DNA of 64,000 nucleotides from Nemertoderma westbladi. Taxonomy: Eukaryota > Animalia > Xenacoelomorpha. Both the position numbers and the translations under genes were made by a program. Below, piece by piece: positions 24,198-50,183 of this stretch. The notes under the pieces are model-generated. The model was not told the origin of the DNA, made no database searches, and worked only from the letters and a program-made list of their open reading frames with translations. How positions within the stretch are numbered: position 1 is the first letter of the stretch; each line of letters starts with the position of its first letter. The DNA lies in NCBI GenBank assembly GCA_032718475.1, contig JAUCBJ010004350.1, forward strand, positions 62,001-126,000. Direction: 5' to 3'.

Positions 24198-24850
24198 ATA
24201 GAAAGCACGCATTAATATAAATGGAAATAATACATTCTGGAATACGGTAATTGAAGTTGTTTCCATGTTATTGATTACTTTGCAGCGTTCCGTCCTATAG
24301 GCCGCAACGCTGCAAAGTACTACTTTGCAGCGTTATGAGTAATTCACCAGAAAGCTGTTAAGTTGACATAAATGCAACAAATAGTTATTTTGCCCCAATG
24401 CCCCAATGCAGCGTGCATTAAGAATGCTATGCCGGCTTACACGCGCCTAAGAAACATGATCCTCCAAACTGCTTCAATGTTTTCATGTAACCACAAATTA
24501 TTCACTATAGACCAACATACGAAACCATTTCTTTACTATATAATTTCACCTTTCTTTACTATAAAATATATTTTTTTAACAAATTAAATGCTCCTTTTCT
24601 CTTTATGTTTTCAAAATTATTAAAATGCTATTTGGTATGTATTTGGTATGGCGAAAATTTCCCGCTGGCGAAGGTTGGGGATCCCGACCGGTTAGTTTGT
24701 GTCGTGTTTAGTACGCGTCGCCGCATCCTAGTAACTGCAAAGGCTTCACTCCCTGTGATGAGTTATTAACTATCTCCAAGATAGCACCATATTGCCTCAT
24801 ATTCCTTCTCGGTATGCAATACCATATTATCACATTTTAGACAGTAAGGA

Positions 24851-27800
24851 ATGCCTTGCTGCGCCTGCAACGTTAAGGCGGGCACTAGGCGGTGTAAAAA
24901 CTGTTTGTGCGTGAAGGAGGGTCGCCGTTGCTTCAACTGCGCACCGGGTAAGAAGGGCTTATGCGAAAATGAGGGGGTTTCATCGTCACAGCCGTTGCCC
25001 ATACAGAACTTAGTCAGTTTGCTGAAGCCGGCGTTTCTTTCTCAACCAGCGGCTCCGAATACGGATGATGGGGATAATACGTTGATCGATGAGGACGACA
25101 CTCTGGTGGATACCCCTCCCTTTGTTTCTCCACTCACGTCACCGTGTGGGTCGCCATCCACAGTGTCGCTTATTTTCGCGACGCCCTCGTTTACAGTAGC
25201 CACGCTGTCTACCGGACCCCATACCGACGCCACGCTGTCTACCGAACCCCATACCGACGCCACGCTGTCTACCGGACCCCATACCGACGCCACGCTGTCT
25301 ACCGGACCCCATACCGACGCCACGCTGTCTACCGAACCCCATACCGACGCCACGCTGTCTACCGGACCCCATACCGACGCCACGCTGTCTACCGAACCAC
25401 ATACCGACGCCACGCTGTCTACCGGACCCCATACCGACGCCACGCTGTCTACCGGACCCCGTACTGACGCCACGCTGTCTACCGGACCCCGCACCGACGC
25501 CACGCTGTCTACCAGACCACGTACCGACGCCACGCTGTCTACCGGACCCCGTATCGACGCCACGCTGTCTACCGGACCCCTTACCGACGCCACATTGGCT
25601 ATCGGATCCCATACCGACTCCAATATGTCTACCGGATCCCAGACCGACGCCAATATGTCTACCGGACCCCAGACCGACGCCACGTTGTCTACCGGACCCC
25701 AGACCGGCGCTAAAGTGTCTACCGGACCCCAGACCGGCGCCACACCGTCTACCGGACCCCAGACCGGTGCCACATCGTCTACCGGACCCCAGACCGACGC
25801 CACGTTGTCTACCAGACCCCAGACAGGCACCAATATGTCTACCGGACCCCAGACCGGCGCCACACCGCCTACTGGACCTCGTACCGGCGCCACACCGTCT
25901 ACCGGATCCCAGACCGGCGCCACACCGTCTACCGGATCCCAGACCGGCGCCACACAGTCTACCGGATCCCAGACCGGCGCCACACCGTCTACCGGATCCC
26001 AGACCGGTGCCATACCGCCTACCGGACCTCGTACTGGCGCCATACCGCCTACCGGACCTCGTACTGGTGCCACACCGCTTACCGGATCCCAGAGCGGCGC
26101 CACACCGTCTACGGGATCCCAGACCGGCGCCACACCATTTACCGGACCCCAGAATGGTGCCATTTCGTCTACGAGACCCCGTACCGGCGCCACACCGCCT
26201 ACCGGACCACGTACTGGCGCCACACCGTCTACAGGGACCCACGTATGGTTTGAGCTAAAGCTTCCACTGGTGGATATTTTGACGCCTTTAGATCTCGTCT
26301 ATAAGAAAATAGTTCACTGGCGATCCAATTTGTTTCTGGTGCCTCAGGGGGCGGTTGGTAGACAACTAGTAGCGGAGATGACACGTCTTGTGAACTTGTT
26401 TACAACGGGGTCCCCTTTTACAGGAGGCTGCGTTAACAGCGTTGATGTGTCTGCCTGCGTTGCTCCTACAGAAACCTAGCCGATCGTCAAACACGGCAAC
26501 TCATCGAAAAGTTCTGGAACGCCGCTTAAATGATTGGAGAAATGCGCGTTTCACTGATTTGATGGCAGAAGCTAGCGCAATACAGGGACATCTCCCGAGA
26601 CCGCCTAGACAACCGGAATCCCAAACTGAAGCTACGAGAAAAGCTTTCGTTCGGCATATGTTGACTGGAAATGTGTCAGCCGCTACTCGATGCCTCAGTC
26701 AGATCAACCGAGGTACTCCAATGAAACTCGACGATTCATTCGTCGACAAGGATGGTACAACGAAGGTAGTTCGCGATGTTCTGTTAGAAAAACATCCCGT
26801 AGCTACTCTGGCAGATAGTTCCGTCCTGCTTACAGAATTCGATCGCGCACCAGAGCACCACAGGGTGGTGTTTGAACGTATCGACGGCCAGCTGATTCTT
26901 TCCTGTCTCCTCCGAATGAAAGGAAACGCGGCAGGCCCCTCGGGCCTTGACGTACAGGGGTGGAAACACCTGCTGACGAAGTTTAGAAACTACTCCGTGG
27001 ATCTCTCCAACAGCGTTGCAGACATGGCGAAGCGGAAGCACAGGAGATTGTACCGAGGGGGGTGTTGTCATCTTACCTTTCCGCACGTCTTCTCGCGTTG
27101 GATAAGTGTCCGGGGGTTCGGCCCATCGGCATTGGGGAGGTGTTACAGCGGGTAATCGGGAAGGCGGCGATGTTCAGCATTAGTGGGGACCTTCAGTCCG
27201 TAGGCGGATCCACCCAGCTCTGTATGGGACAGAAATCTGGTATTGAATTCGCCATACACAGCCTTAATGATGCATTCGCCGAGGAAGAATGTGAGGCGAT
27301 ACTCCAAATTGATGCAACTAATGCATTCAACGTTCTTAATCGGGAGGCCGCCACACACAACATTAGCCTTGTCTGCCCATCGCTGCACACAATCGTTGTA
27401 AATTGCTACGCGGAGCCATCGAACTTGTTCGTGGGAGGTGAGTCTATTTTCTCCTCGGAAGGTTCCACTCAAGGGGATCCGGTGGCGATGCCGATGTTCG
27501 CCTCCGGTTTAACTCCATTCGTAGACGAACTCGAGACGGCGTGTACTGTGAACCAGAAATGGTTTGCAGATGATGGAAATGCGGCGGGTTCTCTAGTTGA
27601 ATTGCGGAAGTTTTGGGATGTTGCTGTGAGGAGGGGTCCTCTATACGGATATTTCCCCTCGAAATGTCGGTTGACGGTGAAACCTGACAAGCTCGGTGAG
27701 GCTGAATTACTCTTTGCCGGCATGGACATCGTCATAGACTCGGTTGGCAGCAAGCTTCTTGGGGGGGTGATTGGTTCAAAGGAGTTCCAGGAGGAGTTTA

Positions 27801-29087
27801 TACTTTCCAAGGTAGATGAGTTCGCGGAGGAGGTGGATCGACTCGCTGATATCTCCATGATGGACCCTCATTGCGCGTACGCGGGTCTAGCCTTTCGGAC
27901 TGTCGTGCAGATGGCGGTTTCTCGCTCGGGTTATACCAGGCGCCGTCGAGCAGTTCGATAAACTCGAGAAATCGGTGACGGCCGCTCTCTGTCGGATAGT
28001 TGACCGGCCGGCGTTGACCACGGAGGAACGACAGCTGCTCTCCCTCCCAGTCCGTGCTGGGGGGATGGGAATCCCAGTTCCGTCCGATCTGGCCACTCAG
28101 TATGACCATTCCAGGTTGGTTTGTGAGCCACTGAATGGCGCTTCCTCTGGTGATATGGCAGACGTCAGGAAGGAACAGCTACTCGCCGCCAATCGTGTAA
28201 AGGTACAGGCTGGCCTGCAAACAAAAAATAAAATCGCAGTTTGTAACGGAGACCTGCCGCTAACCCAACAAAAGCTAAGGGAATTAGTTTCAGAAAAGGG
28301 GGCGTCAACCTGGCTGAATACTAAACCGGTTACTATACATAACACTCACCTGTCGAAAGAGGAATTCCGAGATGCATTGTGTCTGCGGTACTGTTGGCAG
28401 CCGAAGTCTCTCCCCGCTCGTTGTGTCTGTGGGTCGCGATTTTCACCCACCCACGTCCTGTCGTGTCCTACTGGAGGATTTCCCTCTATCAGACATAACG
28501 AGATTCGAGACTTCATTGCCAACGCGTTAACCGAGGTGGCTAACAACGTAGCCATAGAGCCAATGCTGCAGCCCTTGACAGGCGAGTCGTTCCGGCACCG
28601 GACCACGTCTACCGACCAACAGGCCAGGCTCGACGTCTCAGTCAGCGGTTTTTGGGGAAACCGGTACGAGAAAGTCTTCCTGGATGTCTCCGTGTTCAAC
28701 CCCTTATCGGAAACGAACGCGGCGATGTCGTTGGAAGCAGCGCACTCGCACCACGAGGCACGCAAACGCCTCAAGTACGAAGACCGGATTCGCGAGGTAG
28801 AACTGGCGACATTTGTGCCCCTCATCGTTTCTGCATTCGGTGGGATGGCTACGGCAATGCGCCAGTTTGTGAAACGGCTGGCATACAAGCTGTCGGACCG
28901 CCGTGAAATCCGGTACTCCGACTGTGTTTCCTGGATCCGGAGACAAATTAGTTTTGCGCTTCTGCGGTCCAGTCTGATGTGTCTTCGCGGCGCGCGTTCC
29001 GCATCCAAGCGGCCAGTTCACCACGCGATATTGGACACCTCCATACGGCTGGCGAACGCGGATACGGACTGCGGGGTTGCTGGGTAG
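24851..29087 (+). pseudogene. CRE-type RT-RLE polyprotein with three frameshifts
   Basis: N-terminal Cys cluster; RT motifs GVRPIGIGE, IDATNAFN, GSTQGDP, WFADD; CxC..H..C..RHN knuckle; RLD..FLDV endonuclease; breaks near 26430, 27050, 27890. Confidence 0.88.
25197..26240 (+). repeat. 30-bp in-frame minisatellite inside the CRE ORF, about 35 copies
   Basis: GACGCCACGCTGTCTACCGGACCCCATACC and variants, encoding (DATLSTGPHT)n. Confidence 0.95.
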
Positions 29088-29270
29088 TTCAGTTGGGTAG
29101 TTCAGTTACCACTGACAGACTGCTGCGACGGACAGGATTAATTAATAATATTAAAAATAGTTTGAATTTCCCCCGTAAATGCTAAATGTATCGTGTAGTA
29201 TATATTTGTTGGCATTTTGCTTTATTAAATTGACATATAAAAAAAAAAAAATAAAAAAAATAAAAAAAAA

Positions 29271-30580
29271 TTATGTAAGTCAGTCAGGTACTCGGTACCA
29301 GTATATACTATAATTATGTAAGTCAGTCAGGTACTCCGTACCAGTATATACTATAATTATGTAAGTCAGTCAGGTACTCGGTATCGGTACAGGTACTCGG
29401 TATCGGTACAGGTACTCGGTACCAGTATATAATATAATTATGTAAGTCAGTCAGGTACTCGGTACCGGTACAAGTACTCGGTACCAGTATATAATATAAT
29501 TATGTAAGTCAGTCAGGTACTCGGTACCGGTAGAGGTACTCGGTACCAGTATATAATATAATTATGTAAGTCAGTCAGGTACTTGGTACCAGTATATAAT
29601 ATAATTATGTAAGTCAGTCAGGTACTCGGTACCTGTACCCTGTACTGGTACCGGTACAGGTACTCGGTACCAGTATATAATATAATTATGTAAGTCAGTC
29701 AGGTACTCGGTACCAGTATATAATATAATTATGTAAGTCAGTCAGGTACTCGGTACCGGTACAGGTACTCGGTACCAGTATATAATATAATTATGTAAGT
29801 CAGTCAGGTACTTGGTACCAGTATATAATATAATTATGTAAGTCAGTCAGGTACTCGGTACCAGTATATAATATAATTATGTAAGTCAGTCAGGTACTCG
29901 GTACCAGTATATAATATAATTATGTAAGTCAGTCAGGTACTCCGAACCGGTACAGCTGCTCGGTACCAGTATATAATATAATTATGTAAGTCAGTCAGGT
30001 ACTTGGTACCAGTATATAATATAATTATGTAAGTCAGTCAGGTACTCGGTACCAGTATATAATATAATTATGTAAGTCAGTCAGGTACTCGGTACCGGTA
30101 CAGGTACTCGGTACCAGTATATAATATAATTATGTAAGTCAGTCAGGTACTCAGTACCGGTACAGGTACTCGGTACCAGTATATAATATAATTATGTAAG
30201 TCAGTCAGGTACTCGGTACCAGTATATAATATAATTATGTAAGTCAGTCAGGTACTCCGAACCGGTACAGCTGCTCGGTACCAGTATATAATATAATTAT
30301 GTAAGTCAGTCAGGTACTCGGTACCAGTATATAATATAATTATGTAAGTCAGTCAGGTACTCTGTACCGGTACCGGTACTCGGTACCAGTATATAATATA
30401 ATTATGTAAGTCAGTCAGGTACTCCGAACCGGTACAGCTGCTCGGTACCAGTATATAATATAATTATGTAAGTCAGTCAGGTACTTGGTACCAGTATATA
30501 CTATAATTATGTAAGTCAGTCAGGTACTCGGTACCAGTATATACTATAATTATGTAAGTCAGTCAGGTACTCGGTACCGC
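29271..30580. repeat. 43-bp tandem array (with longer variants) containing GTAAGT
   Basis: TTATGTAAGTCAGTCAGGTACTCGGTACCAGTATATAATATAA repeated about 25 times. Confidence 0.95.
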
Positions 30581-30708
30581 TATATAATATAATATGCAGA
30601 ACCTACAATCGTAAATAACTTATACACCATTAGCTCATATAGAAGCCAGACAGACCACCATACATATACCACCATACAGATTCTACTAACAGTAATTTTT
30701 TATTACAG

Positions 30709-30924
30709 AATAAAATTATCGAAGATTCTAGAACCAAATTTGATGAATCAATAAGTTCCATGGATGTTACCATAGCAACGTTACAAGCAACCAATGAACG
30801 GTTAGAAAGTGATTTAAGGAAACCCTGCGTGCAGTGTGAAGATTACGAATTTCAATTGGTTAAACTACAACATCAAGTGAAATCATTGTCCAATCAGATC
30901 AAAGAGAAAGTTCTTACAGTAGAG
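30709..30924 (+). CDS. EEA1: EEA1 coiled-coil exon (first seen in window)
   Basis: TTACAG| ... GAG|GTTAGT, phase 0/0, 72 codons of coiled coil. Confidence 0.75.
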
Positions 30925-30959
30925 GTTAGTTGTTCCGATCAGGATCAGCCAAGCCAATC

Positions 30960-32830
30960 AGATCAAAGATAAATATCGTACTGTAAAGTCCAGTAGTATA
31001 CCACCTACTGAATCATAGTAACGAAATAAATACCTTACTGTAGAATCCAGCAGTATATACGGGTTCGTACAGTATCTGACAAGAAATCCCAGTCCAGGGT
31101 GTCTAAATAAAAAGATAAAGTACACAAACGACTACTGGCGAGGAATGGAGCCTGATGTCTCTTCTAATACTTGGGCGAATCAAATGCCCGGGCTAACTAG
31201 ACAAACAGGATGCCCGGCCTTTAACCGGTGAGGCAGATGTACAGTCTACACATACAGACCAAACTCACCGGAAAACAATCCCCGCGTAGTGAATCATAAC
31301 TACCGCTAATGGACCTAAATACTATAAACTTGCCGCGGTGTGATTTATATGGGTATAATACGAGCTAGCGGGTCAACGACACTAGCGTAAGAAATAATAC
31401 TGCCGACAGGAAAAGACAGTCAAAAGGGGTGCCTGAGAACAAAACAATACTTCTACAAACTATCTTAAAGCGCGTGTGTGTGTGTGTGTGTGTGTTACGA
31501 TAAAACAATTTTGGTGTACCGCTGTTGTACTAGGTTTTGGTGATTTTAACAAAATAACAATACCGGGCGCTAGCTACTTGAATAAACTAGTCGCGCGCTG
31601 GTAGCGCAATACTTACAAACTGACGTCAAAAGGGCTCTCTCCTCCTATATTCACAACTCAGTCGGGAAATTACGGTGTTAGTAACTACACCCGCGATCGG
31701 CACTGATACCAGATTCTGATTGTGAGATAAGGAAATAGGGTGTTAATTTACTATCGTACGTATAGCTGATCTGGTATGTAATTGATTCTAGAATTTTGTT
31801 ACCGCGGTGGTCTGCAGTAAATACCTATCAGTGGGAGGGGAAGGGAATATGGGAAGGGCGTGGTAGATCGACCTCCCTTAGCCAAACATGTGCCGGTAGC
31901 AGAAAGCTGCCCCCTTGCTTGAGCAAATACTTTGGACTCAGACAGGTCAGTCAGACTGCAAGGCCTACAGAGCTAACCGGTACTGTACCGCTAGTAAGGC
32001 AAATCACCAAATTATAGAGCGTGCTGTTTGCACCTAGTGTACTTGCACGTACTAACAAACAGCTTCAGCTCGCACCTATAAGAGGTACAGGCTAACCGAG
32101 GGGTTCCTGTCTGAATCTGAGGTATTTGTTCCTATATTTTACGGCGTCCCAGGACGGCGTCACGCTTTCCCCTGATCTAAGCTCTTACGGCGGGCAAAGG
32201 CGTCGAACAAAGTCTTACTTCCTCTAACATGAGGTTCTCAGGCAATCGGGTCATACCTTCCAAATGGGTGTGGGTGAGATAGTCCGGGTTCCCTTATGTG
32301 TCGTGGACATCCCTTCCCCTTGCGTTGCTGTGGCCTAAAGGTCTAGGCAGCCATTCATTTGGCTGTTCAAGATAGATACGCTAAAGAACTACATGTTCAG
32401 AGTTTGCAGTACCCTATATTTTAACGTAAATAACAAAATGATTTATCAAACTAAACTAAACTAAACTTTACAATCAGAACAACAAGATAAGTGTAAGATT
32501 AGTGAAAACCGAAGGGCAAACGGCACCTTATATAGGAAATCCTAAGCATGGAATCACACTAGAACATTCTACCACATTCCATGGGCTCACATTGGACCAA
32601 TAAATTATTAAAATACTACTCAATTCACGTGTTGTACGCACTCCATTGGCTTATCGAGTTTGGCGAGACGGAAAATAAATTGCACAAAATATAAATATTT
32701 ACCGACCCAGATTCGAACTCTCTACCTATCTCATGCATAACCTGCGCACTAACCTTCTGGACCAATATGTGTGGTACTTAAATGAGTATAAGCTTCATTT
32801 GTGGGAGTATAATTCTGTTTTGACCGCACC
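30960..32830 (-). mobile_element. Solo LTR related to the BEL LTRs at 47460 and 62023
   Basis: Collinear shared blocks on the minus strand: AGAATTATA.TCCC, Pol III boxes, TATATAA, ATGGCTG.CTAGAC, GTTCGA.GCCTT, CATATAAATCACACCGCGGCAA, CTGCCTCACCGGTTA, ACTTTACAGTA.GATATT. Boundaries approximate; no TSD seen. Confidence 0.7.
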
Positions 32831-32917
32831 GGAAGTACGTCGCAAGACTTTGAACGTAATCCCTGAAATATGGCCGAAGAAACTTTGTTTTTTACTTTTT
32901 TTGGCAATAAATAATTC

Positions 32918-34721
32918 TTGTTTGTTCCGTTCTAGAAACTTGAGACAACTATCATTGGTTGTTTGTTCCGTTCTAGAAACTTGAGACAACTATCATTGGT
33001 TGTTTGTACCGTTCTAGAAACTTGAGACAACTATCATTGGTTGTTTGTTCCGTTCTAGAAACTTGAGACAGCTATCATTGGTTGTTTGTTCCGTTCTAGA
33101 AACTTGAGACAACTATCATTGGTTGTTTGTTCCGTTATAGAAACTTGAGACAACTATCATTGGTTGTTTGTTCCGTTCTAGAAACTTGAGACAGCTATCA
33201 TTGGTTGTTTGTTCCGTTCTAGAAACTTGAGACAACTATCATTGGTTGTTTGTTCCGTTCTAGAAACTTGAGACAACTATCATTAGTTGTTTGTTCCGTT
33301 CTAGAAACTTGAGACAACTATCATTGGTTGTTTGTTCCGTTCTAGAAACTTGAGACAACTATCATTGGTTGTTTGTTCCGTTCTAGAAACTTGAAACAAC
33401 TATCATTAGTTGTTTGTTCCGTTCTAGAAACTTGAGACAGCTATCATTGGTTGTTTGTTCCGTTCTAGAAACTTGAGACAACTATCATTGGTTGTTTGTT
33501 CCGTTATATAAACTTGAGACAACTATCATTGGTTGTTTGTTCCGTTCTAGAAACTTGAGACAACTATCATTGGTTGTTTGTTCCGTTCTAGAAACTTGAG
33601 ACAACTATCATTGGTTGTTTGTTCCGTTATAGAAACTTGAGACAACTATCATTGGTTGTTTGTTCCGTTCTAGAAACTTGAGACAACTATCATTGGTTGT
33701 TTGTTCCGTTCTAGAAACTTGAGACAACTATCATTGGTTGTTTGTTCCGTTATAGAAACTTGAGACAACTATCATTGGTTGTTTGTTCCGTTCTAGAAAC
33801 TTGAGACAACTATCATTGGTTGTTTGTTCCGTTCTAGAAACTTGAGACAACTATCATTGGTTGTTTGTTCCGTTCTAGAAACTTGAGACAACTATCATTG
33901 GTTGTTTGTTCCGTTCTAGAAACTTGAGACAACTATCATTGGTTGTTTGTTCCGTTATAGAAACTTGAGACAACTATCATTGGTTGTTTGTTCCGTTCTA
34001 GAAACTTGAGACAACCATCATTGGTTGTTTGTTCCGTTCTAGAAACTTGAGACAACTATCATTGGTTGTTTGTTCCGTTCTAGAAACTTGAGACAACTAT
34101 CATTGGTTGTTTGTTCCGTTCTAGAAACTTGAGACAACTATCATTGGTTGTTTGTTCCGTTCTAGAAACTTGAGACAACTATCATTGGTTGTTTGTTCCG
34201 TTCTAGAAACTTGAGACAACTATCATTGGTTGTTTGTTCCGTTATAGAAACTTGAGACAACTATCATTGGTTGTTTGTTCCGTTCTAGAAACTTGAGACA
34301 ACTATCATTGGTTGTTTGTTCCGTTCTAGAAACTTGAGACAACTATCATTGGTTGTTTGTTCCGTTATAGAAACTTGAGACAACTATCATTGGTTGTTTG
34401 TTCCGTTCTACAAACTTGAGACAACTATCATTGGTTGTTTGTTCCGTTCTAGAAACTTGAGACAACTATCATTGGTTGTTTGTTCCGTTATAGAAACTTG
34501 AGACAACTATCATTGGTTGTTTGTTCCGTTCTACAAACTTGAGACAACTATCATTGGTTGTTTGTTCCGTTCTACAAACTTGAGACAACTATCATTGGTT
34601 GTTTGTTCCGTTCTAGAAACTTGAGACAACTATCATTGGTTGTTTGTTCCGTTATAGAAACTTGAGACAACTATCATTGGTTGTTTGTTCCGTTCTAGAA
34701 ACTTGAGACAACTATCATTGG
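32918..34721 (+). repeat. 41-bp array of the EEA1 acceptor junction, 44 copies
   Basis: TTGTTTGTTCCGTTCTAG|AAACTTGAGACAACTATCATTGG; the last copy runs into the exon. Confidence 0.95.
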
Positions 34722-34884
34722 AGTGAATGAGGAGTCTGATAATATCAAGGCGCGGTACGAAACCACCCAGGCGGAGTTGCATCTACTGAAATCTAAAGAG
34801 AAAGAGTTACAGCAAGAATTGGCCATGGTAACGGATTCCAACGAAGAGCTGAAGATTACATTGGACAAGGCGACTAGTGAAAAG
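34699..34884 (+). CDS. EEA1: EEA1 coiled-coil exon
   Basis: TTCTAG|KLETTIIGVNEES...EK|GTTAGC, phase 0/0. Confidence 0.8.
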
Positions 34885-35101
34885 GTTAGCCGAGTGTTTC
34901 CGTTAACATTCAGACTGAGTAATAGATTACTGAAGCAGTGAGACCCGGAGTAAAGATTATATATGTTAAAGGCATTTATTTATTGTATTAGAAAATTAAA
35001 CACTTTCTGTTAAAAGCGAGTGATTTTGAAATACGTAGGATTTTGAAAATACAGTACATAATAGTAAGTTTGATCTGGCGAAATATCATTTTTTTATTTA
35101 G

Positions 35102-35233
35102 GATGAGTTAGAATTGGCGCGTAACGCGTTACAGTTGAGTAGTGAGCAGTTGGATTCCGTTAACAGAGATTTGGAGAAACGGTATACAACCTTACAGAAC
35201 GAACACGTTGAGTTAATGGATAGAAGCAACAAT
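35102..35233 (+). CDS. EEA1: EEA1 coiled-coil exon
   Basis: TTTAG|DELELARNAL...DRSNN|GTTAGT, phase 0/0, 44 codons. Confidence 0.8.
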
Positions 35234-35282
35234 GTTAGTCTGAGAGTCGTTTACGTTTAGTAAATTTATTGAAACCCAAGTT

Positions 35283-35437
35283 TCATAGATTTCTCCTCAG
35301 TTTCATACCACGTGTTCCGTCATCAAGTCTGCAGTTCAAATCTCCACCAATTAGAACCGGAAGTTGGAGGGGGTCTGTTTGATGGGGGAGATTGCGTTGT
35401 TGATTGATAGAATATACCTTGCAGACTGTAGTCGGGG
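35283..35437 (-). pseudogene. LINE AP-endonuclease fragment
   Basis: PVLIGGDLNCR resembles the APE GDFN motif. Confidence 0.45.
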
Positions 35438-35514
35438 TTAAATTAAAACATGTAATATTATGGGTTTGTTCAGAAGTGGAAAAAATGAGAAAGCGCGTCA
35501 CCGGGGGTTGAACC

Positions 35515-35560
35515 AGCGCTATACGTACGTTTCGGCCTAACAGGCCTCATCAGTAGCGCT
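35515..35560 (-). ncRNA. Minimal type I hammerhead ribozyme (minus copy)
   Basis: Exact reverse complement of 35688-35733. Confidence 0.85.
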
Positions 35561-35687
35561 AACCAGCTCAGCCACTAGCCCCTGACACGCACACTCCCAC
35601 CTAATCCACTTCTATTGAACGGGAATATGAACACTTCTATGAAATTGAATTAGGTGTGAGTGTCAGGGGCTAGTGGCTGAGCCGGTT

Positions 35688-35733
35688 AGCGCTACTGATG
35701 AGGCCTGTTAGGCCGAAACGTACGTATAGCGCT
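35688..35733 (+). ncRNA. Minimal type I hammerhead ribozyme (plus copy)
   Basis: Stem I AGCGCTA/TAGCGCT; core CTGATGA; stem II GGCCT-GTT-AGGCC; GAAA; stem III C-GTAC-G; GTA cleavage triplet at 35724-35726. Confidence 0.88.
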
Positions 35734-36411
35734 GGTTCAACCCCCGGTGACGCGCTTTCTCATTTTTTCCACTTTTGAATAAAACCATAATATTACACCT
35801 TTAATTACAGTTGCAACAGCTCATCTCCAATTTATTTAATTAAATTAAAACACGCTAAACAATGCAACACATAATATCATTAGAAATAACTAAGTTGGGT
35901 TTGGATGGGGAGTAATTGACGAAATAGTGAATAGTGAACGGCGGAGTCTTAAAATATTTAATCTTAGTTACCCGATGAATCTTAATATGTGGATTGGTGC
36001 TTAAGCGGGATCCCGATCCCGAAAAACAGGAATCCCGGTGGGTGCAATCCCTGTCCCGAACCCCATCTCGACTTTTTTGGAACGGGATCCCGAAGGGGGC
36101 CTATAATATAGTGAAGTAAATTTCTAGAATAACCGATGGATGTTTGCTAGTGAGTTGAAATCTGTTTATCATATCGAGTAGTCGGATTACTGGATTTCAT
36201 TAAACCATCTAGTAATCAACTGTAAATAAATTTTAATAAAATTTTATCTTACTAAAATCTTTCAGAAGTGTAAGATAAAGTGAGTGTTACCCAAAAACCG
36301 CCACATATACCTAGAACTTTAAGGGCATTTAATCCAAAATTGCATTCCCGATCCAGTAAATCGGGATCCCGTGATAATTCCGGTCCCGATCCCGGAAATC
36401 CCGAAAAGTCT

Positions 36412-36616
36412 GAGTTCATTGAATTGCCTGATCAACTTTTATGGCAACCAACACATGGAAAGCGTAGCCGTGGACGACCGGCTATGAGATATATTGACCA
36501 GCTCGAAAGGGATACTGAACTTGGGAGAAACGAAATTGCGACAACTATGGAGAATCGGGAAGCCTGGAAGGATCTCATTTCCACTGTCCGAGTTTGCTCG
36601 ACCTAGTAGTAGTAGT
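36412..36616 (+). mobile_element. 3' end of an RTE-like LINE
   Basis: LLWQPTHGKRSRGRP..YIDQL..MENREAW followed by stop and (TAG)n tail. Confidence 0.75.
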
Positions 36617-38765
36617 TGGAGAATCGGGAAGCCTGGAAGGATCTCATTTCCACTGTCCGAGTTTGCTCGACCTAGTAGTAGTTGGAGAATCGGGAAGCCT
36701 GGAAGGATCTCATTTCCACTGTCCGAGTTCGCTCGACCTAGTAGTAGTTGGAGAATCGGGAAGCCTGGAAGGATCTCATTTCCACTGTCCGAGTTCGCGG
36801 ATAATCGGGAAGCCTGGAAGGATCTCATTTCCACTGTCCGAGTTCGCGGAGAATCGGGAAGCCTGGAAGGATCTCAGTTCCACTGTCCGAGTTCGCGAAG
36901 AATCGGGAAGCCTGGAAGGATCTCATTTCCACTGTCCGAGTTCGCGGAGAATCGGGAAGCCTGGAAGGATCTCATTTCGACTGTCCGAGTTCGCTCGACC
37001 TAGTAGTAGTAGTTGGAGAATCGGGATGCCTGGAAGGATCTCATTTCCACTGTCCGAGTTCGCAGAGAATCGGGAAGCCTGGAAGGATCTCATTTCCACT
37101 GTCCGAGTTCGCGGAGAATCGGGAAGCCTGGAAGGATCTCAGTTCCACTGTCCGAGTTCGCGGAGAATCGGGAAGCCTGGAAGGATCTCATTTCCACTGT
37201 CCGAGTTCGCGGAGATTCGGGAAGCCTGGAAGGATCTCATTTCGACTGTCCGAGTTCGCACGTCCTAGTAGTAGTAGTTGGAGAATCGGGAAGCCTGGAA
37301 GGATCTCATTTCCACTGTCCGAGTTCGCTCGACCTAGTAGTAGTTGGAGAATTGGCAAGCCTGGGAGGATCTCAGTTCCACTGTCCGAGTTTGCTCGACC
37401 TAGTAGTAGTTGGAGAATCGGGAGGCCTGGAAGGATCTCATTTCCACTGTCCGAGTTCGCGGAGAATCGGGAAGCCTGGAAGGATCTCATTTCGACTGTC
37501 CGAGTTCGCACGTCCTAGTAGTAGTAGTTGGAGAATCGGGAAGCCTGGAAGGATCTCATTTCCACTGTCCGAGTTCGCTCGACCTAGTAGTAGTTGGAGA
37601 ATTGGCAAGCCTGGGAGGATCTCAGTTCCACTGTCCGAGTTTGCTCGACCTAGTAGTAGTTGGAGAATCGGGAGGCCTGGAAGGATCTCATTTCCACTGT
37701 CCGAGTTCGCGGAGAATCGGGAAGCCTGGAAGGATCTCATTTCGACTGTCCGAGTTCGCACGTCCTAGTAGTAGTAGTTGGAGAATCGGGAAGCCTGGAA
37801 GGATCTCATTTCCACTGTCCGAGTTCGCTCGACCTAGTAGTAGTTGGAGAATTGGCAAGCCTGGGAGGATCTCAGTTCCACTGTCCGAGTTTGCTCGACC
37901 TAGTAGTAGTTGGAGAATCGGGAAGCCTGGAAGGATCTCATTTCCACTGTCCGAGTTCGCGGAGAATCAGTGAAGCCTGGAAGGATCTCATTTCCAGTGT
38001 CCGAGCTCGCTCGACCTAGTAGTAGTAGTTGGAGAATCGGGAAGCCTGGAAGGATCTCATTTCCACTGTCCGAGTTCGCTCGACCTAGTAGTAGTTGGAG
38101 AATTGGCAAGCCTGGGAGGATCTCAGTTCCACTGTCCGAGTTTGCTCGACCTAGTAGTAGTTGGAGAATCGGGAAGCCTGGAAGGATCTCATTTCCACTG
38201 TCCGAGTTCGCGGAGAATCAGTGAAGCCTGGAAGGATCTCATTTCCAGTGTCCGAGCTCGCTCGACCTAGTAGTAGTAGTTGGAGAATCGGGAAGCCAGG
38301 AAGGATCTCATTTCTACTGTCCGAGTTCGCGGAGAATCGGGAAGCCTGGAAGGATCTCATTTCCAGTGTCCGAGCTCGCTCGACCTAGTAGTAGTAGTTG
38401 GAGAATCGGGAAGCCTGGAAGGATCTCATTTCCACTGTCCGAGTTCGCGGAGAATCGGGAAGCCTGGAAGGATCTCATTTCCAGTGTCCGAGCTCGCTCG
38501 ACCTAGTAGTAGTAGTTGGAGAATCGGGAAGCCTGGAAGGATCTCATTTCCACTGTCCGAGTTCGCGGAGAATCGGGAAGCCTGGAAGGATCTCATTTCC
38601 AGTGTCCTAGCTCGCTCGACCTAGTAGTAGTAGTTGGAGAATCGGGAAGCCTGGAAGGATCTCATTTCCACTGTCCGAGTTCGCGGAGAATCGGGAAGCC
38701 TGGAAGGATCTCAGTTCCACTGTCCGAGTTCGCGGAGAATCGGGAAGCCTGGAAGGATCTCATTA
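36549..38765 (+). repeat. Satellite of 49-, 66- and 69-bp units derived from the LINE 3' end
   Basis: GGAGAATCGGGAAGCCTGGAAGGATCTCATTTCCACTGTCCGAGTTCGC with or without TCGACC(TAG)nTT. Confidence 0.95.
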
Positions 38766-38885: not shown

Positions 38886-39298
38886 ATGGTTAAAGATATG
38901 AATATTCTAGAACATGAGAAAGTTGATGTAGAGAAGCAACTGGCAGATACGAAGGTTGAATTAGTTGAATTGGAGAACGAGTTAGAAAATAGCAACGATA
39001 CCTCGTTGCGGAAACAGTTGGAATTCAATACTCAAATAACTAATCTAAGTAACCAATTAGAACGCGATAAATTCAACCACGAAAAAGAAACTAACTCGAC
39101 AAAGAAACTAGTTGAAAATCTCAATAATAAGGTTGGCGAGTTGGAGACTCATCGTTTTGAGTTAATAACGGAACTCACGGCGAAGAATAAAGTTATAGAA
39201 ACTCACGAAGTTAATTTCGATAACATTAAATCGGAAGTTGTTGTAATGGAAGCCAGATTGGAGAACATGTGTGAAGAGAAGAATGTTCTACTAGATAG
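38886..39298 (+). CDS. EEA1: EEA1 coiled-coil exon
   Basis: TTACAG|MVKDM...VLLD-AG|GTTGGT, phase 0/2. Confidence 0.85.
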
Positions 39299-41265
39299 GT
39301 TGGTATATATATAATACACCGTTACCGTTAGGTTGGTATATCTATAATACACAGTTAGGTTGGTATATCTATAATACACCGTTAGGTTGGTATATCTATA
39401 AACCGTTAGGTTGGTTAGGTTGGTATATCTATAATACACCGTTAGGTTGGTTAGGTTGGTATATCTATAATACACCGTTAGGTTGGTATATCTATAATAC
39501 ACCGTTAGGTTGGTATATCTATAATACACCGTTAGGTTGGTTAGGTTGGTATATCTATAATACACCGTTAGGTTGGTATATCTATAATACACCGTTAGGT
39601 TGGTATATCTATAATACACCGTTAGGTTGGTATATCTATAATACACCGTTAGGTTGGTATATCTATAATACACCGTTAGGTTGGTATATCTATAATACAC
39701 CGTTAGGTTGGTATATCTATAATACACCGTTAGGTTGATATATCTATAATACACCGTTAGGTTGGTATATCTATAATACACCGTTAGGTTGGTATATCTA
39801 TAATACACCGTTAGGTTGGTATATCTATAATACACCGTTAGGTTGGTATATCTATAATACACAGTTAGGTTGGTATATCTATAATACACCGTTAGGTTGG
39901 TTAGGTTGGTATATCTATAATACACAGTTAGGTTGGTATATCTATAATACACCGTTAGGTTGGTATATCTATAAACCGTTAGGTTGGTTAGGTTGGTGTA
40001 TCTATAATACACCGTTAGGTTGGTATATCTATAATACACCGTTAGGTTGGTATATCTATAATACACCGTTAGGTTGGTTAGGTTGGTATATCTATAATAC
40101 ACCGTTAGGTTGGTATATCTATAATACACCGTTAGGTTGGTATATCTATAATACACCGTTAGGTTGGTATATCTATAATACACCGTTAGGTTGGTATATC
40201 TATAAACCGTTAGGTTGGTTAGGTTGGTGTATCTATAATACACCGTTAGGTTGGTATATCTATAATACACCGTTAGGTTGGTATATCTATAATACACCGT
40301 TAGGTTGGTTAGGTTGTTATATCTATAATACACCGTTAGGTTGGTATATCTATAATACACCGTTAGGTTGGTATATCTATAATACACAGTTAGGTTGGTA
40401 TATCTATAATACACCGTTAGGTTGGTTAGGTTGGTATATCTATAATACACCGTTAGGTTGATATATCTATAATACACCGTTAGGTTGGTATATCTATAAT
40501 ACACCGTTAGGTTGGTTAGGTTGGTATATCTATAATACACCGTTAGGTTGGTATATCTATAATACACAGTTAGGTTGGTATATCTATAATACACCGTTAG
40601 GTTGGTATATCTATAATACACCGTTAGGTTGGTATATCTATAATACACCGTTAGGTTGGTATATCTATAATACACCGTTAGGTGGTATATCTATAATACA
40701 CCGTTAGGTTGGTATATCTATAATACACCGTTAGGTTGGTATATCTATAATACACCATTAGGTTGGTATATTTATAATACACCGTTAGGTTGGTATATCT
40801 ATAATACACCGTTAGGTTGGTATATCTATAATACACCGTTAGGTTGGTATATCTATAATACACCGTTAGGTTGGTATATCTATAATACACCGTTAGGTTG
40901 GTATATCTATAATACACCGTTAGGTTGGTATATCTATAATACACCGTTAGGTTGGTATATCTATAATACACCGTTAGGTTGATATATCTATAATACACCG
41001 TTAGGTTGGTATATCTATAATACACCGTTAGGTTGGTATATCTATAATACACCGTTAGGTTGGTATATCTATAATACACCGTTAGCTTGGTTAGGTTGGT
41101 ATATCTATAGTACACCGTTAGGTTGGTTAGGTTGGTATATCTATAATACACAGTTAGGTTGGTATATCTATAATACACAGTTAGGTTGGTATATCTATAA
41201 TACACAGTTAGGTTGGTATATCTATAATACACAGTTAGGTTGGTATATTTATAAACGTTAGGTTT
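39297..41265 (+). repeat. 27-bp array of the EEA1 donor junction, roughly 70 copies
   Basis: AG|GTTGGTATATCTATAATACACCGTT repeated from the exon end. Confidence 0.95.
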
Positions 41266-41266
41266 G

Positions 41267-42551
41267 TTTATCTGTACACCGTTATGTTAAGGTGTTATCT
41301 GCACACCGTTATGTTAAGGTGTTTATCTGTACACCGTTATGTTAAGGTGTTTATCTGTACACCGTTATGTTAAGGTGTTATCTGCACACCGTTATGTTAA
41401 GGTGTTTATCTGTACACCGTTATGTTAAGGTGTTTATCTGTACACCGTTATGTTAAGGTGTTTATCTGTACACCGTTATGTTAAGGTGTTTATCTGTACA
41501 CCGTTATGTTAAGGTGTTTATCTGTACACCGTTATGTTAAGGTGTTTATCTGTACACCGTTATATTAAGGTGTTTATCTGTACACCGTTATGTTAAGGTG
41601 TTTATCTGTACACCGTTATGTTAAGGTGTTTATCTGTACACCGTTATGTTAAGGTGTTTATCTGTACACCGTTATGTTAAGGTGTTTATCTGTACACCGT
41701 TATGTTAAGGTGTTTATCTATACACCGTTATGTTAAGGTGTTTATCTGTACACCGTTATGTTAAGGTGTTTATCTGTACACCGTTATGTTAAGGTGTTTA
41801 TCTGTACACCGTTATGTTAAGGTGTTTATCTGTACACCGTTATGTTAAGGTGTTTATCTGTACACCGTTATGTTAAGGTGTTTATCTGTACACCGTTATG
41901 TTAAGGTGTTTATCTGTACACCGTTATGTTAAGGTGTTTATCTGTACACCGTTATGTTAAGGTGTTTATCTGTACACCGTTATGTTAAGGTGTTTATCTG
42001 TACACCGTTATGTTAAGGTGTTTATCTGTACACCGTTATGTTAAGGTGTTTATCTGTACACCGTTATGTTAAGGTGTTTATCTATACACCGTTATGTTAA
42101 GGTGTTTATCTGTACACCGTTATGTTAAGGTGTTTATCTGTACACCGTTATGTTAAGGTGTTTATCTGTACACCGTTATGTTAAGGTGTTTATCTGTACA
42201 CCGTTATGTTAAGGTGTTTATCTGTACACCGTTATGTTAAGGTGTTTATCTGTACACCGTTATGTTAAGGTGTTTATCTGTACACCGTTATGTTAAGGTG
42301 TTTATCTGTACACCGTTATGTTAAGGTGTTTATCTGTACACCGTTATGTTAAGGTGTTTATCTGTACACCGTTATGTTAAGGTGTTTATCTGTACACCGT
42401 TATGTTAAGGTGTTTATCTGTACACCGTTATGTTAAGGTGTTTATCTGTACACCGTTATGTTAAGGTGTTTATCTGTACACCGTAGGTGTTTATCTGTAC
42501 ACCGTTATGTTAAGGTGTTTATCTGTACACCGTTATGTTAAGGTGTTTATC
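41267..42551 (+). repeat. 28-bp array of the EEA1 acceptor junction, about 46 copies
   Basis: TGTACACCGTTATGTTAAG|GTGTTTATC; the last copy continues as the exon. Confidence 0.95.
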
Positions 42552-42762
42552 CACCGATTCGGACAATAAGAAGCTGATAAATAAAGTCGCTTCCTGGAAG
42601 GGAAAGTTTGAAGAGGCGGAAATCGCGATGATTGAGTTGGGAAGAGAAAACCAGAGTTTATTAATCGAGAGAAATTCCTTACAGAACAGGAGATGGGTTA
42701 GGGATGATGATATTAATCAGTGTAGCAACTGCAGGAGAGAATTCGCTGCAATCATTAGAAAG
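42543..42762 (+). CDS. EEA1: EEA1 exon (end of coiled coil, start of FYVE)
   Basis: RCL...ELGRENQSL...NRRWVRDD..C..C..F..IRK|GTATTA; ELGRENQSL matches EEA1. Confidence 0.92.
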
Positions 42763-42937: not shown

Positions 42938-43060
42938 CACCATTGTCGTAACTGCGGCAATATTTTCTGCCACGATTGTTCCTCAAAGGAGGAAAAAACT
43001 CCCCATAGCAGGAAGCCAGTGCGGGTCTGTGATCAGTGCTACATCGAGATAAACAGCTGA
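42938..43060 (+). CDS. EEA1: EEA1 last exon (FYVE domain)
   Basis: TTCCAG|[35 protein letters not shown]. Confidence 0.93.
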
Positions 43061-43463: not shown

Positions 43464-46018
43464 GCGAGTGGTAGCGGCATACGGCCGCAGCAGGCGGAAT
43501 CGGCAGGCGGCCGTGGCGGGTGGTAGTAGCGTGTGGTAGCGGCATACGGCCGCAGCAGGCGGAATCGGCAGGCGGCTGTGGCGGGTGGTAGTAGCGAGTG
43601 GTAGCGGCATACGGCCGCAGCAGGCGGCCGTGGCGGGTGGTAGTAGCGAGTGGTAGCGGCATACGGCCGCAGCAGGCGGAATCGGCAGGCGGCCGTGGCG
43701 GGTGGTAGTAGCGAGTGGTAGCGGCATACGGCCGCAGCAGGCGGAATCGGCAGGCGGCCGTGGCGGGTGGTAGTAGCGAGTGGTAGCGGCATACGGCCGC
43801 AGCAGGCGGCCGTGGCGGGTGGTAGTAGCGAGTGGTAGCGGCATACGGCCGCAGCAGGCGGCCGTGGCGGGTGGTAGTAGCGAGTGGTAGCGGCATACGG
43901 CCGCAGCAGGCGGAATCGGCAGGCGGCCGTGGCGGGTGGTAGTAGCGAGTGGTAGCGGCATACGGCCTCAGCAGGCGGATTTGGCAGGCGGCCGTGGCGG
44001 GTGGTAGTAGCGAGTGGTTGCGGCATACGGCCGCAGCAGGCGGAATCGGCAGGCGGCCGTGGCGGGTGGTAGTAGCGAGTGGTAGCGGCATACGGCCGCA
44101 GCAGGCGGCCGTGGCGGGTGGTAGTAGCGAGTGGTTGCGGCATACGGCCGCAGCAGGTGGAATCGGCAGGCGGCCGTGGCGGGTGGTAGTAGCGAGTGGT
44201 AGCGGCATACGGCCGCAGCAGGCGGAATCGGCAGGCGGCCGTGGCGGGTGGTAGTAGCGAGTGGTAGCGACATACGGCCGCAGCAGGCGGCCGTGGCGGG
44301 TGGTAGTAGCGAGTGGTTGCGGCATGCGGCCGCAGCAGGCGGAATCGGCTGGCGAGTGGTAGTAGCGAGTGGTAGCGGCATACGGCCGCAGCAGGCGGCC
44401 GTGGCGGGTGGTAGTAGCGAGTGGTTGCGGCATACGGCCGCAGCAGGCGGAATCGGCAGGCGGCCGTGGCGGGTGGTAGTGGCGAGTGGTAGCGGCATAC
44501 GGCCGCAGCAGGCGGAATCGGCAGGCGGCCGTGGCGGGTGGTAGTAGCGAGTGGTAGCGGCATACGGCCGCAGCCGGCGGAATCGGCAGGCGGCCGTGGC
44601 GGGTGGTAGTAGCGAGTGGTAGCGGTATTCGGCCGCAGCAGGCGGAATCGGCAGGCGGCCGTGGCGGGTGGTAGTAGCGAGTGGTTGCGGCATACGGCCG
44701 CAGCAGGCGGAATCGGCAGGCGGCCGTGGCGGGTGGTAGTAGCGAGTGGTTGCGGCATACGGCCGCAGCAGGCGGAATTGGCAGGCGGCCGTGGCGGGTG
44801 GTAGTAGCGAGTGGTAGCGGCATACGGCCGCAGCAGGCGGAATCGGCAGGCGGCCGTGGCGGGTGGTAGTAGCGAGTGGTAGCGGCATACGGCCGCAGCA
44901 GGCGGAATCGGCAGGCGGCCGTGGCGTGTGGTAGTAGCGAGTGGTAGCGGCATACGGCCGCAGCAGGCGGCCGTGGCGGGTGGTAGTAGCGAGTGGTAGC
45001 GGCATACGGCCGCAGCAGGCGGCCGTGGCGGGTGGTAGTAGCGAGTGGTAGCGGCATACGGCCGCAGCAGGCGGAATCGGCAGGCGGCCGTGGCGGGTGG
45101 TAGTAGCGAGTGGTAGCGGCATACGGCCGCAGCAGGCGGCCGTGGCGGGTGGTAGTAGCGAGTGGTTGCGGCATACGGCCGCAGCAGGCGGAATCGGCAG
45201 GCGGCCGTGGCGGGTGGTAGTAGCGAGTGGTAGCGGCATACGGCCACAGCAGGCGGCCGTGGCGGGTGGTAGTAGCGAGTGGTTGCGGCATACGGCCGCA
45301 GCAGGCGGAATCGGCAGGCGGCCGTGGCGGGTGGTAGTAGCGAGTGGTAGCGGCATATGGCCGCAGCAGGCGGCCGTGGCGGGTGGTAGTAGCGAGTGGT
45401 TGCGGCATACGGCCACAGCAGGCGGAATCGGCAGGCGGCCGTGGCGGGTGGTAGTAGCGAGTGGTAGCGGCATACGGCCGCAGCAGGCGGCCGTGGCGGG
45501 GGGTAGTAGCGAGTGGTAGCGGCCTACGGCCGCAGCAGGCGGAATCGCCAGGCGGCCGTGGCGGGTGGTAGCGGCGAGTGGTAGCGGCATACGGCCGCAG
45601 CAGGCGGAATCGGCAGGCGGCCGTGGCGGGTGGTAGTAGCGAGTGGTAGCGGCATACGGCCGCAGCAGGCGGAATCGGTCGGCGGCCGTGGCGGGTGGTA
45701 GTAGCGAGTGGTAGCGGCATACGGCCGCAGCAGGCGGAATCGGCAGGCGGCCGTGGCGGGTGGTAGTAGCGAGTGGTAGCGGCATACGGCCGCAGCAGGC
45801 GGAATCGTCAGGCGGCCGTGGCGGGTGGTAGTAGCGAGTGGTAGCGGCATACGGCCGCAGCAGGCGGCCGTGGCGGGTGGTAGTAGCGAGTGGTTGCAGC
45901 ATACGGCCGCAACAGGCGGAATCGGCAGGCGGCCGTGGCGGGTGGTAGTAGCGAGTGGTAGCGGCATACGGCCGCAGCAGGCGGCCGTGGCGGGTGGTAG
46001 TAGCGAGTGGTAGCGGCT
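43464..46018. repeat. GC-rich 52/65-bp minisatellite
   Basis: GGCGGCCGTGGCGGGTGGTAGTAGCGAGTGGTAGCGGCATACGGCCGCAGCA with optional GGCGGAATCGGCA. Confidence 0.95.
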
Positions 46019-46440
46019 ACTTTTGGTATGCTACCGAGATCACCCTCACCCGCCCCAATATTTTTCCATAAATATTGTTTGAAAGTTGTAACACAAGCTG
46101 TTTTTAACTTTTTAATTTTACTCGATTATTTAATACGAATTATTTTGTCATCTTAGCTTTTACTAATCGAATTCTAATAAGTTATTTTAAATATTTAAAG
46201 GCAAAATCAGTCTAACATAGCCATTGTGTTGAACAAGACGTGTTTCAAAATTCAGGCTATATTTTAAAGAATGGCCTTAGAGGCCATAATTGACACTAAA
46301 TAGCCAACATTTCTTCCCTTCATGCAATCTGATCAAATCCTTTTTATTTGTGAAAAACTCATAGGCTGCTCGCTGACGGCGCTCGCCGCTCAATAACTAA
46401 AAGGGCTGCGATCTGCAGCGACGAGCGGCACCGGCTATTT

Positions 46441-47459
46441 GTGGTGTATCAACAACCAGAGAGAATAATGTGTTCTATCTTGTAAAAGTGGTCGCTCTCC
46501 ACTACTGTGGTGTATCAACAACCAGAGAGAATAATGTGTTCTATCTTGTAAAAGTGGCCGCTCTCCACTACTGTGGTGTATCAACAACCAGAGAGAATAA
46601 TGTGTTCTATCTTGTAAAAGTGGCCGCCCTCCACTACTGTGGTGTATCAACAACCAGAGAGAATAATGTGTTCTATCTTGTAAAAGTGGCAGCTCTCCAC
46701 TACTGTAGTGTATCAACAACCAGAGAGAATAATGTGTTCTATCTTGTAAAAGTGGCCGCCCTCCACTACTGTGGTGTATCAACAACCAGAGAGAATAATG
46801 TGTTCTATCTTGTAAAAGTGGCCGCTCTCCACTACTAACTGTGGTGTATCAACAACCAGAGAGAATAATGTGTTCTATCTTGTAAAAGTGGCCGCTCTCC
46901 ACTACTAACTGTGGTGTATCAACAACCAGAGAGAATAATGTGTTCTATCTTGTAAAAGTGGCCGCTCTCCACTACTAACTGTGGTGTATCAACAACCAGA
47001 GAGAATAATGTGTTCTATCTTGTAAAAGTGGCCGCTCTCCACTACTAACTGTGGTGTATCAACAACCAGAGAGAATAATGTGTTCTATCTTGTAAAAGTG
47101 GCCGCTCTCCACTACTGTGGTGTATCAACAACCAGAGAGAATAATGTGTTCTATCTTGTAAAAGTGGCCGCTCTCCACTACTGTGGTGTATCAACAACCA
47201 GAGAGAATAATGTGTTCTATCTTGTAAAAGTGGCCGCTCTCCACTACTAACTGTGGTGTATCAACAACCAGAGATAATAATGTGTTCTATCTTGTAAAAG
47301 TGGCCGCTCTCCACTACTGTGGTGTATCAACAACCAGAGAGAATAATGTGTTCTATCTTGTAAAAGTGGCCGCTCTCCACTACTAACTGTGGTGTATCAA
47401 CAACCAGAGAGAATAATGTGTTCTATCTTGTAAAAGTGGTCGCTCTCCACTACTGTGGT
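46441..47459. repeat. 66/70-bp tandem array (about 15 copies), interrupted by the BEL element
   Basis: GTGGTGTATCAACAACCAGAGAG...CTCCACTACT; resumes at 63933. Confidence 0.95.
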
Positions 47460-48016: not shown

Positions 48017-50183
48017 AGTTAGAAATACTTGTCACATCTGCCCTTTTCTATCTGTTTTATCATGCTTCACCACGGTGAACTCAACTGAGGGACAGGATGG
48101 CTGGCTAGACATCGGGCCGCAGCAATGAACGGGAACATCTAGGGAATGTAGACAGGAGACAACCCGCAATATCATCTTAGTTATTCGCCCATCGCCTGAA
48201 AGGTTAGACAGCGTTCGATGCCTTGCTACCTAAGTGTAAGACCAAAGATCAAAGGTAGAGGTAGTGACACGCTGTACGCCTAAAAATTACATCTAGGGAT
48301 TGTACTGTTTTAATTCAGGAAAAAACCGCAGTAGACCTTCATATTCCTACGGGGGGAGAGCAGGCAGAGATACTAGTACGCAGATAGGACGTAGGCACAC
48401 CGGTACAAAGCATACACATTGGTAGGGTGCAGCAAACTGTATGCCTAACTCTTGCTAAGTACAGGTGCGTCTGCGACTATTTGTAGTACAACGGTGTCCA
48501 TTGCATTAGAACTTGTAGGCTAGGAGGGTTACTGTGTTTCACCTGAATTAGGATTGTACCGTTCAGGCGGTAGGGCAGTTTACGACTAGGCGCAAATAAA
48601 TTGAGGCTAATTAGGGATACTAACATCTACCGTGTCCCCGCCGACATCCTGATAGGAAGTTACCAAGCCCACCTAGGTAACCAAAATTCTAGATAGGACG
48701 CCAGGCTAGCTATTAGTAACCGTACGCCTACTGTAGTAAACTAACACATTTCTTCTTAGTATTAGGGACCTGGTAAATTAAAATTGCCGAATTCTGGGCG
48801 TAGCATTAACCTTATGCCTGAATTTGAGTCCTGGAAATACGCAAGAGGGGAAGGAACCTTATTATTCGTGAGTATTGGACCTACAAGTTACAAAATTAGA
48901 ATATTTGTAAAATGCACACCGTACCCAGTAATTATATATATGAAGGAGCAAAACTGATCTTGACGGTTCAGAATTAACACGCGCGCGTTAGAAATTATTT
49001 ACACCTCAAAATATATAAAATTAACTTTTGTCCGTACTGCACTTTGCCCGCTAGTTAGACATCTCCAAATCTCTGCACCTCTAGCTAGCGTCTCTTTCGC
49101 CCAACCATATAAATCACACCGCGGCAAAGTATACGAGCCCCTTAGTCCGTCAGTGAGTCAGCCTGATTTTAGAATTCGCTGCGCGGGATTTTGTTTTATC
49201 GAAGTTTGTCTGCTCGTAGACTGTTTTCTGCCTCACCGGTTATAAGGGACCAATACTGCAATATATTCGCTTACTTGGAGTTTACTGTTTTGGTGAGAAG
49301 GTCGGATTTATGATTTGATTCACAAACTTTACAGTAAGATATTGCAGGTATTGTTACTGTCTCTTCGAATTAGTAGGAATATGTTTTACTGAACTACGGT
49401 TCGGTAGGACTAAAGTTATTTGAAAATTTTGTATTTTGAGGTAAAAGTTTATATTTGATTAGCTAAGTGCTAATATTTTGAAATAAAATTTGATTTGAAC
49501 CGCGCGTAAAATATTTTTTGGAATTGAATACCGGTATTTTAAAAGGGTTTAAATACCATATTGTACCGGTACAACATTTTTCGTAAAAGTAAAACCTAAC
49601 TCTTTTGTTTTTCAGGATTCAGAGCTCATTTCTAGACTGTAACGAGAGCAAGACCGTGTTTAGCAAGTTTGGGAGATAGATAACTCAACAACTTTGGTTG
49701 GGAAAATCGCACTTCGTCCACAACGCTGGAAACGGAAAGGTTCACGTCCGGTTTGTATCTGGGAATCTGTTTTTCTGGAGAATTATTGGAGTGGGTGAGT
49801 TCGAAAAGTTGCATAAATAAGTTAGGCATTACCGTATTAGTTAAAATTATTGTGGGTTCCACTGTCTCAAGTATTTATGCATTCCGTACGATTTCTTTGT
49901 TTATTGCTGAATTAGTCCGTATTATTGTATTTAATTTATATTTTGATAACGCATATCGTTATCCGATTTATTTGTTATAAAATTGGCCGCTAGGCTATTT
50001 TTATTATATACTTATTCCGTGACATTTATTTGTTGTAAAATTGGCCGTTTAGGCTAATTTTATCCATCTGCTATAAAATCGGCCGGTAGGCTAATTTTAT
50101 ATGACCGTAATTAATACCGTTTTATACAAATACGGTAAGTTTGATACTTTGACACTCACTTTACTTGACTTACAACTACCGAA

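Follow-up and report, generated by a model that had tools for sequence, protein, structure and literature searches.

Tandem repeats that lie across exon-intron boundaries and leave splicing undisturbed have been described in amphioxus as mirages. Two reports name Adh3, troponin C, the globins BflGb6 and BflGb9, and PGBD5 as cases (PMC3087553, PMC3902484), and cite Canestro et al. 2002 as the original account of the Adh mirage. A human CBS variant, c.844_845ins68, duplicates the junction of intron 7 and exon 8, and its splicing uses the more distal of the two sites (PMC2630376). In human F7, the 37-bp VNTR of intron 7 has an end unit that spans the boundary, and its pseudo-sites, although identical and functional, stay silent; the exon-proximal site wins, which has been explained by 5'-to-3' scanning (PMC1557585). 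The Rogers model derives new introns from AG|GT proto-splice sites that are duplicated in tandem (PMC2891723).

Here, we describe a 41-bp array at a splice acceptor in a stretch of 64,000 nucleotides from Nemertoderma westbladi (the window). The window is eukaryotic, intron-bearing and repeat-rich, with 113 TRF rows, and tandem repeats with a period of at least 10 make up 26% of its length. Like the mirages, the array consists of tandem units, arranged head to tail, that span an authentic exon-intron boundary, and many, not all, of these units retain the splice signal, here an AG. It resembles BflGb6 in particular in repeating the 3' end of an intron together with the start of the following exon (PMC3087553).

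Gene structure and the 41-bp array

A search of public sequencing runs returned eight, none recorded as RNA, of which four contained the query; these were compared over 34681-35420, a stretch holding the last unit only. Three are DNA-like and cover the intron: X1, possibly the window's own source, and X2 and X3, which together represent one second sample (S2). The fourth, X4, comes from a third sample (S3) and yields a single contig, 2123 nt long and at depth 706, which lies on exons alone and skips 217 nt at GT..AG. Although the tool labels this run 'DNA?', its spliced joints indicate that X4 is probably RNA.

Six exons on the + strand join into an unbroken open frame of 429 codons, which encodes coiled-coil-like sequence ending in a full FYVE domain. 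The exon at 42543 has human EEA1 (1JOC) as its best PDB match (E 6.8e-11, 73/73 residues), with RUFY1 far behind (E 0.038), and an EEA1-type coiled-coil segment precedes the FYVE domain at the C-terminus of the frame. Judged from sequence, the gene thus appears to be EEA1-like, in keeping with the name first given to it. Protein searches found no homologues, and a metagenome scan found no related locus. The features to which we refer are as follows.

30709-30924, + strand: upstream coding exon, 72 codons, donor 30924|30925; 5' boundary predicted, end at a loose end of the X4 contig (window 30893-30922)
30925-34698, + strand: intron of 3774 nt, holding the 43 upstream copies
32866-32935, + strand: native U-rich intron end with the AG of copy 1 (32934-32935); the exon body now lies 1763 nt downstream of this AG, whose use leads to a stop after 29 codons
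34697-34698, + strand: AG of copy 44, the sole array acceptor that keeps the frame; this form of junction is seen in the X4 contig
34699-34884, + strand: coding exon, 186 nt, phase 0-0, then a 217-nt intron (X4 joint 34882-35100, GT..AG)
35102-35233, + strand: coding exon, 132 nt, joined to 38886 (X4 loose end)
38886-39298, + strand: coding exon, 413 nt, coiled-coil-like; start from the RNA contig, end predicted
39299-42542, + strand: putative intron, 3244 nt, consisting entirely of 126 units, each bounded by GT and AG; junction predicted from the frame
42543-42762, + strand: coding exon, with a match to the C-terminal coiled coil of EEA1 and to the first part of FYVE
42938-43060, + strand: last coding exon, with the remainder of FYVE and the stop (FYVE E 8.6e-13, Pfam)

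The array occupies 32918-34721 on the + strand (period 41, 44.0 copies, 97% matches by TRF). Each unit comprises the last 18 bases of the intron and the first 23 of the next exon, a boundary fixed by the X4 contig; unit comparison and TRF both bear out the preliminary description on this point. Copy 1 alone is preceded by the native U-rich end of the intron, as had been noted, and the array's AGs run from 32934-32935 to 34697-34698. Twenty-five of the 44 units are identical to the consensus, and eight carry a C-to-A change at -4. The AG is kept in 40 of the 44 units and lost in copies 15, 37, 40 and 41; the AG-bearing decoys therefore number 39, and the 43 proposed earlier was too high. Three of these four copies lie among the seven decoys nearest the exon (34394-34598; naive p 0.010, a comparison chosen after looking). 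The three AG-to-AC copies likely represent one change duplicated locally, which inflates that p value. Exact microhomology at the ends of the unit was looked for and none was found, nor does any 14-mer of the unit occur elsewhere within the 64-kb window.

In all three DNA-like runs, the unit assembles as a short looped or broken contig. Its depth relative to the flank is 57 in X1, 23.5 in X2 and 45-60 in X3, and from the assembly, each consensus 31-mer of the unit should occur 28.5 times on average. Because contig depth is not copy number and the two S2 runs disagree, these ratios amount to tens of copies in two samples. Against the suspicion of an assembly artefact, raised when the array was first noticed, stand these unit contigs at roughly 23-60 times flank depth in 3/3 DNA-like runs from two samples, and the array at 32918-34721 is confirmed as real as far as contigs can tell. 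The figure of 44 is that given by the assembly.

The X4 contig joins 30924 to 34699, with a single 23-nt exon head running into unique exon sequence (1/1 spliced contig), which supports the proposed donor at 30924; in sample S3, the array may be absent or short. The intronic 18 nt of the unit occur in no X4 contig, a weak observation given that contigs drop rare forms. Over 318 exon bases, X4 differs from the window at three positions, two of which change a residue.

Among the acceptors of the array, only the AG of copy 44 keeps the frame, as originally claimed. Splicing from donor 30924 to any of the 43 upstream unit positions brings a stop 22-29 codons past the junction. Among 212 AGs tested over 30925-34800, eight permit an open frame up to the true stop, namely 34697 and seven inside the exon, and none upstream of 34697 does so. 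In-frame use of each third copy was considered and rejected, as all reach a stop. Skipping of exon 34699-34884 would preserve the frame; it is not seen in the sole X4 contig.

Several further repeats and genes surround these exons. A 43-bp array at 29269-30593, whose unit contains a perfect donor-like GTAAGT, follows directly on the poly(A) tail of a retroelement and leaves 116 nt between its end and acceptor 30709, with no exon seen ahead of it. The retroelement (24700-29268), which from its sequence appears to be of the non-LTR retrotransposon kind, contains broken reverse-transcriptase-like frames and a 30-bp tandem array at 25199-26240. Farther upstream, on the same strand as the EEA1-like gene, lies a two-exon gene with a MOLO1 domain (12016-17340; Pfam E 1.9e-09), in which a 21-bp array (13999-14823) and the neighboring repeats sit mid-intron, each more than 1.3 kb away from both splice sites. 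A long inverted repeat seen by eye at 35474-35790, possibly a small fold-back element, and an array (36274-38764) of 49- and 66-bp units derived from the end of a reading frame are both intronic, the latter 153 nt from the next acceptor; the reading frame may be a LINE 3' end, which it resembles. Just past the predicted 3' end of the gene, 43464-47459 holds two arrays, one GC-rich with 52/65-bp units and the other with 66-bp units. Beyond them, long gag/pol-like frames, including one of 1282 codons, lie between near-identical short frames (about 48340-48950 and 62900-63520), and 48342-63516 is probably an LTR retrotransposon. An enrichment of arrays at splice sites of the EEA1-like gene (two of three repeat families, rough p 0.02, post hoc) is too small to count.

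Choice among the acceptor copies

The reading that we prefer, and regard as probable, is that one local duplication was followed by ordinary minisatellite expansion, and that splicing discards the 43 upstream copies together with the intron, since the whole exon, with its downstream donor, is joined to the last copy only. Expansion would have proceeded by slippage or unequal crossing-over, as suggested by established minisatellite behavior and the local clustering of unit variants. Copy 44 would be selected by pairing across the exon with donor 34884; the distance to this donor is 186 nt for copy 44 and 227, 268 and 391 nt for the next copies that retain an AG. Exon sequence beyond +23, which the decoys lack, may assist. 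The 18 intronic bases of the unit contain no A before the AG (the nearest As fall at -23 to -34), so that the branch point for copy 44 would be supplied by the portion of copy 43 that derives from the exon. Transcripts leaking to upstream copies would be lost to NMD, and the array may be near neutral.

Two observations bear on what distinguishes copy 44. Its context from -41 to +23 is common to 19 of the 44 copies, and its predicted accessibility (0.31) is not above that of decoys 2-43 (mean 0.39). Local signal and folding therefore cannot single it out; what is unique to it is the downstream part, consisting of the exon remainder and donor 34884. Given 19 copies in identical context, exon definition from downstream is the most likely basis for the choice. 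In a study of human splicing, exons with a long upstream and a short downstream intron are exon-defined and favor the acceptor nearest across the exon, whereas the upstream 3' site is preferred overall, a preference reduced or reversed only in exon-defined classes (PMC9225289). Exon 34699-34884 shares the layout of that class, with 3774 nt of intron before it and 217 nt after it; the rules applied here are human ones, and the spliceosome of this animal may differ.

Two other routes to copy 44 were rejected. RNA structure as a selector seemed attractive when six units gave a z of -6.8 against dinucleotide shuffles, but a fair control, in which one unit is shuffled and the shuffled unit is then repeated, matches the array in 24/300 trials. 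A micro-exon route, from the AG of copy 1 to a donor inside the unit, founders on the four GT contexts, all poor donors, and on the plain junction in the contig.

Among the alternatives, we regard as improbable that the decoys are often used and their products destroyed by NMD, such that array length sets the EEA1 mRNA output of an allele. Each upstream copy does lead to an early stop with several junctions downstream, the native U-rich tract remains at copy 1, and AG-less copies gather near the exon (three among the seven nearest decoys) as if silenced. This clustering was noticed post hoc, and its p of 0.010 is inflated by local copying of one change. Moreover, X4 holds no decoy-type contig beside its main contig at depth 706, itself a weak point, and the mirage reports describe no aberrant mRNA (PMC3087553, PMC3902484).

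Quite improbable, too, is a different origin of the mRNA, in which the window's copy is a 5'-truncated or disabled allele or duplicate, its arrays grew unconstrained and the transcript comes from an array-free locus. EEA1 bears an N-terminal C2H2 zinc finger, and neither strand of positions 1-31000 contains a C2H2-like motif. Contig arithmetic assigns roughly the first 505 nt of the X4 contig to sequence 5' of exon 30709; the 30 kb upstream (window 1-30708) contains no evident exons from which they could derive. Scans for upstream coiled-coil-like exons on both strands returned none outside mobile-element frames and the MOLO1-domain gene; the leave-one-out control of one scan recovers 4/4 known exons at scores of 8.8 or more, and the positive control of another is circular. 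These absences, and the retroelement and same-strand MOLO1-domain gene lying upstream, would suit a truncated copy. However, insertions have enlarged the introns, and the 5' exons may therefore sit outside the window; the six exons preserve an unbroken 429-codon frame with a full FYVE domain. The flank in each DNA run comprises one version or single-base alleles only, and all three X4 differences are seen as alleles in S2 DNA, which holds the array.

Stepwise removal of the intron, by recursive splicing or re-splicing from the native first acceptor, is highly improbable. It would start from a native pyrimidine tract and a branch-like motif before copy 1 and yield an identical mature junction, which taken alone fits either one-step use of the last AG or a multi-step route. 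However, a ratchet point has GT immediately after the AG, and the 41-bp unit has AG|AA: a junction at any copy rebuilds no donor. All four GTs in the unit match a donor poorly, and a unit-internal donor joined to a later AG would double the exon head, not remove it, whereas the X4 contig carries one head. Of the mechanisms put forward in the preliminary description, exon definition fits best, stepwise re-splicing is not supported, given the AG|AA junction and the poor GTs, and products of heavy NMD may have escaped the contigs, which drop rare forms. Equally improbable is an array that is much shorter in the genome itself and was lengthened during assembly: the depth ratios do differ between runs (57, 23.5, 45-60), but those of both samples are of order 28.5 or higher, and the units fall into eight distinct variant types in patterned order. 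Downstream exon definition of a harmless repeat of the mirage kind is, in our view, the likely explanation.

A putative intron composed of splice-site repeats

The interval 39299-42542 is stranger than the 41-bp array. Splitting it at AG|GT produces 126 pieces with zero remainder, each running from GT to AG, so that joints of the ratchet type occur throughout. Units of mostly 27 bp that repeat the donor come first, followed by 28-bp units that repeat the acceptor, with transitional units at 41262 and 42466. The donor 9-mer (the word from -3 to +6) occurs in 75 copies and the acceptor 15-mer (-6 to +9) in 42. The two unit types appear related, as only 6/2000 shuffles score as well; the 27-bp unit by itself shows no significant likeness to the exon start (1448/5000 shuffles). 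No pyrimidine tract is present in the interval.

The junction 39298/42543 is predicted from the frame, from an EEA1 match that starts at the first codon of the exon, and from the length of the X4 contig, which would place the transcript end near 43388. Only the outermost pair of sites keeps the frame: one of 141 AGs does so with the true donor, and one of 126 AG|GT donors with the true acceptor.

Both ends of the interval are AG|GT, and its donor-side sequence is related to its acceptor-side sequence, as expected of an intron born by tandem duplication. The Rogers model fits this interval, in which related units are bounded by AG|GT throughout; it is inapplicable to the 41-bp array with its AG|AA (PMC2891723). 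We offer only tentatively, as an unlikely reading, that 39299-42542 is a newborn intron from tandem duplication of an exonic AG|GT and that exon identity alone fixes splice sites in this animal. If true, the gene would hold a natural experiment on splice-site choice and 126 units resembling mini-introns, splice junctions may expand freely and seed introns, and the 41-bp array, with a branch point borrowed from copied exon sequence, would join the all-repeat intron as evidence. The case would matter more if recent gain or stepwise removal were proved. A literature search covering few subscription papers found no report of an intron that consists entirely of repeated donors and acceptors. Zhuo et al. 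2007 reportedly describe human introns arising from tandem arrays, which may cover this case.

Comparison with described systems

The 41-bp array is probably a mirage minisatellite, a member of an already described class; its single-copy X4 junction comes from a third sample, which may lack the array. The novelty implied by the preliminary description was accordingly overstated: human cases with a single duplicate or on the donor side have been tested experimentally. In the amphioxus reports, mRNAs of mirage genes are spliced normally, and either the donor or the acceptor side can be struck. Copy number and identity differ, with 44 copies at 97% here and three to six at 81-100% in BflGb6 (PMC3087553). 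Length instability between haplotypes or cells is a mark of mirages; what we have here are depth ratios of 57, 23.5 and 45-60, the last two from one sample, which are not copy numbers. The same literature search, with few subscription papers covered, found no report on this EEA1-like gene.

Of the human cases, CBS has one extra copy of 68 bp, and the present locus has 43 extra copies of 41 bp (PMC2630376). The F7 VNTR lies on the donor side, whereas the 41-bp array lies on the acceptor side (PMC1557585). Scanning from 5' to 3' would pick the first, wrong copy of an acceptor array, and a different rule is therefore needed here. The 19 copies with identical context make exon definition versus scanning directly testable in a minigene. 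The array also serves as a warning that exons of this kind can end up misplaced in gene prediction and short-read mapping. To the known mirages, it adds a clean, high-copy example with 39 near-identical decoy acceptors and transcript support.
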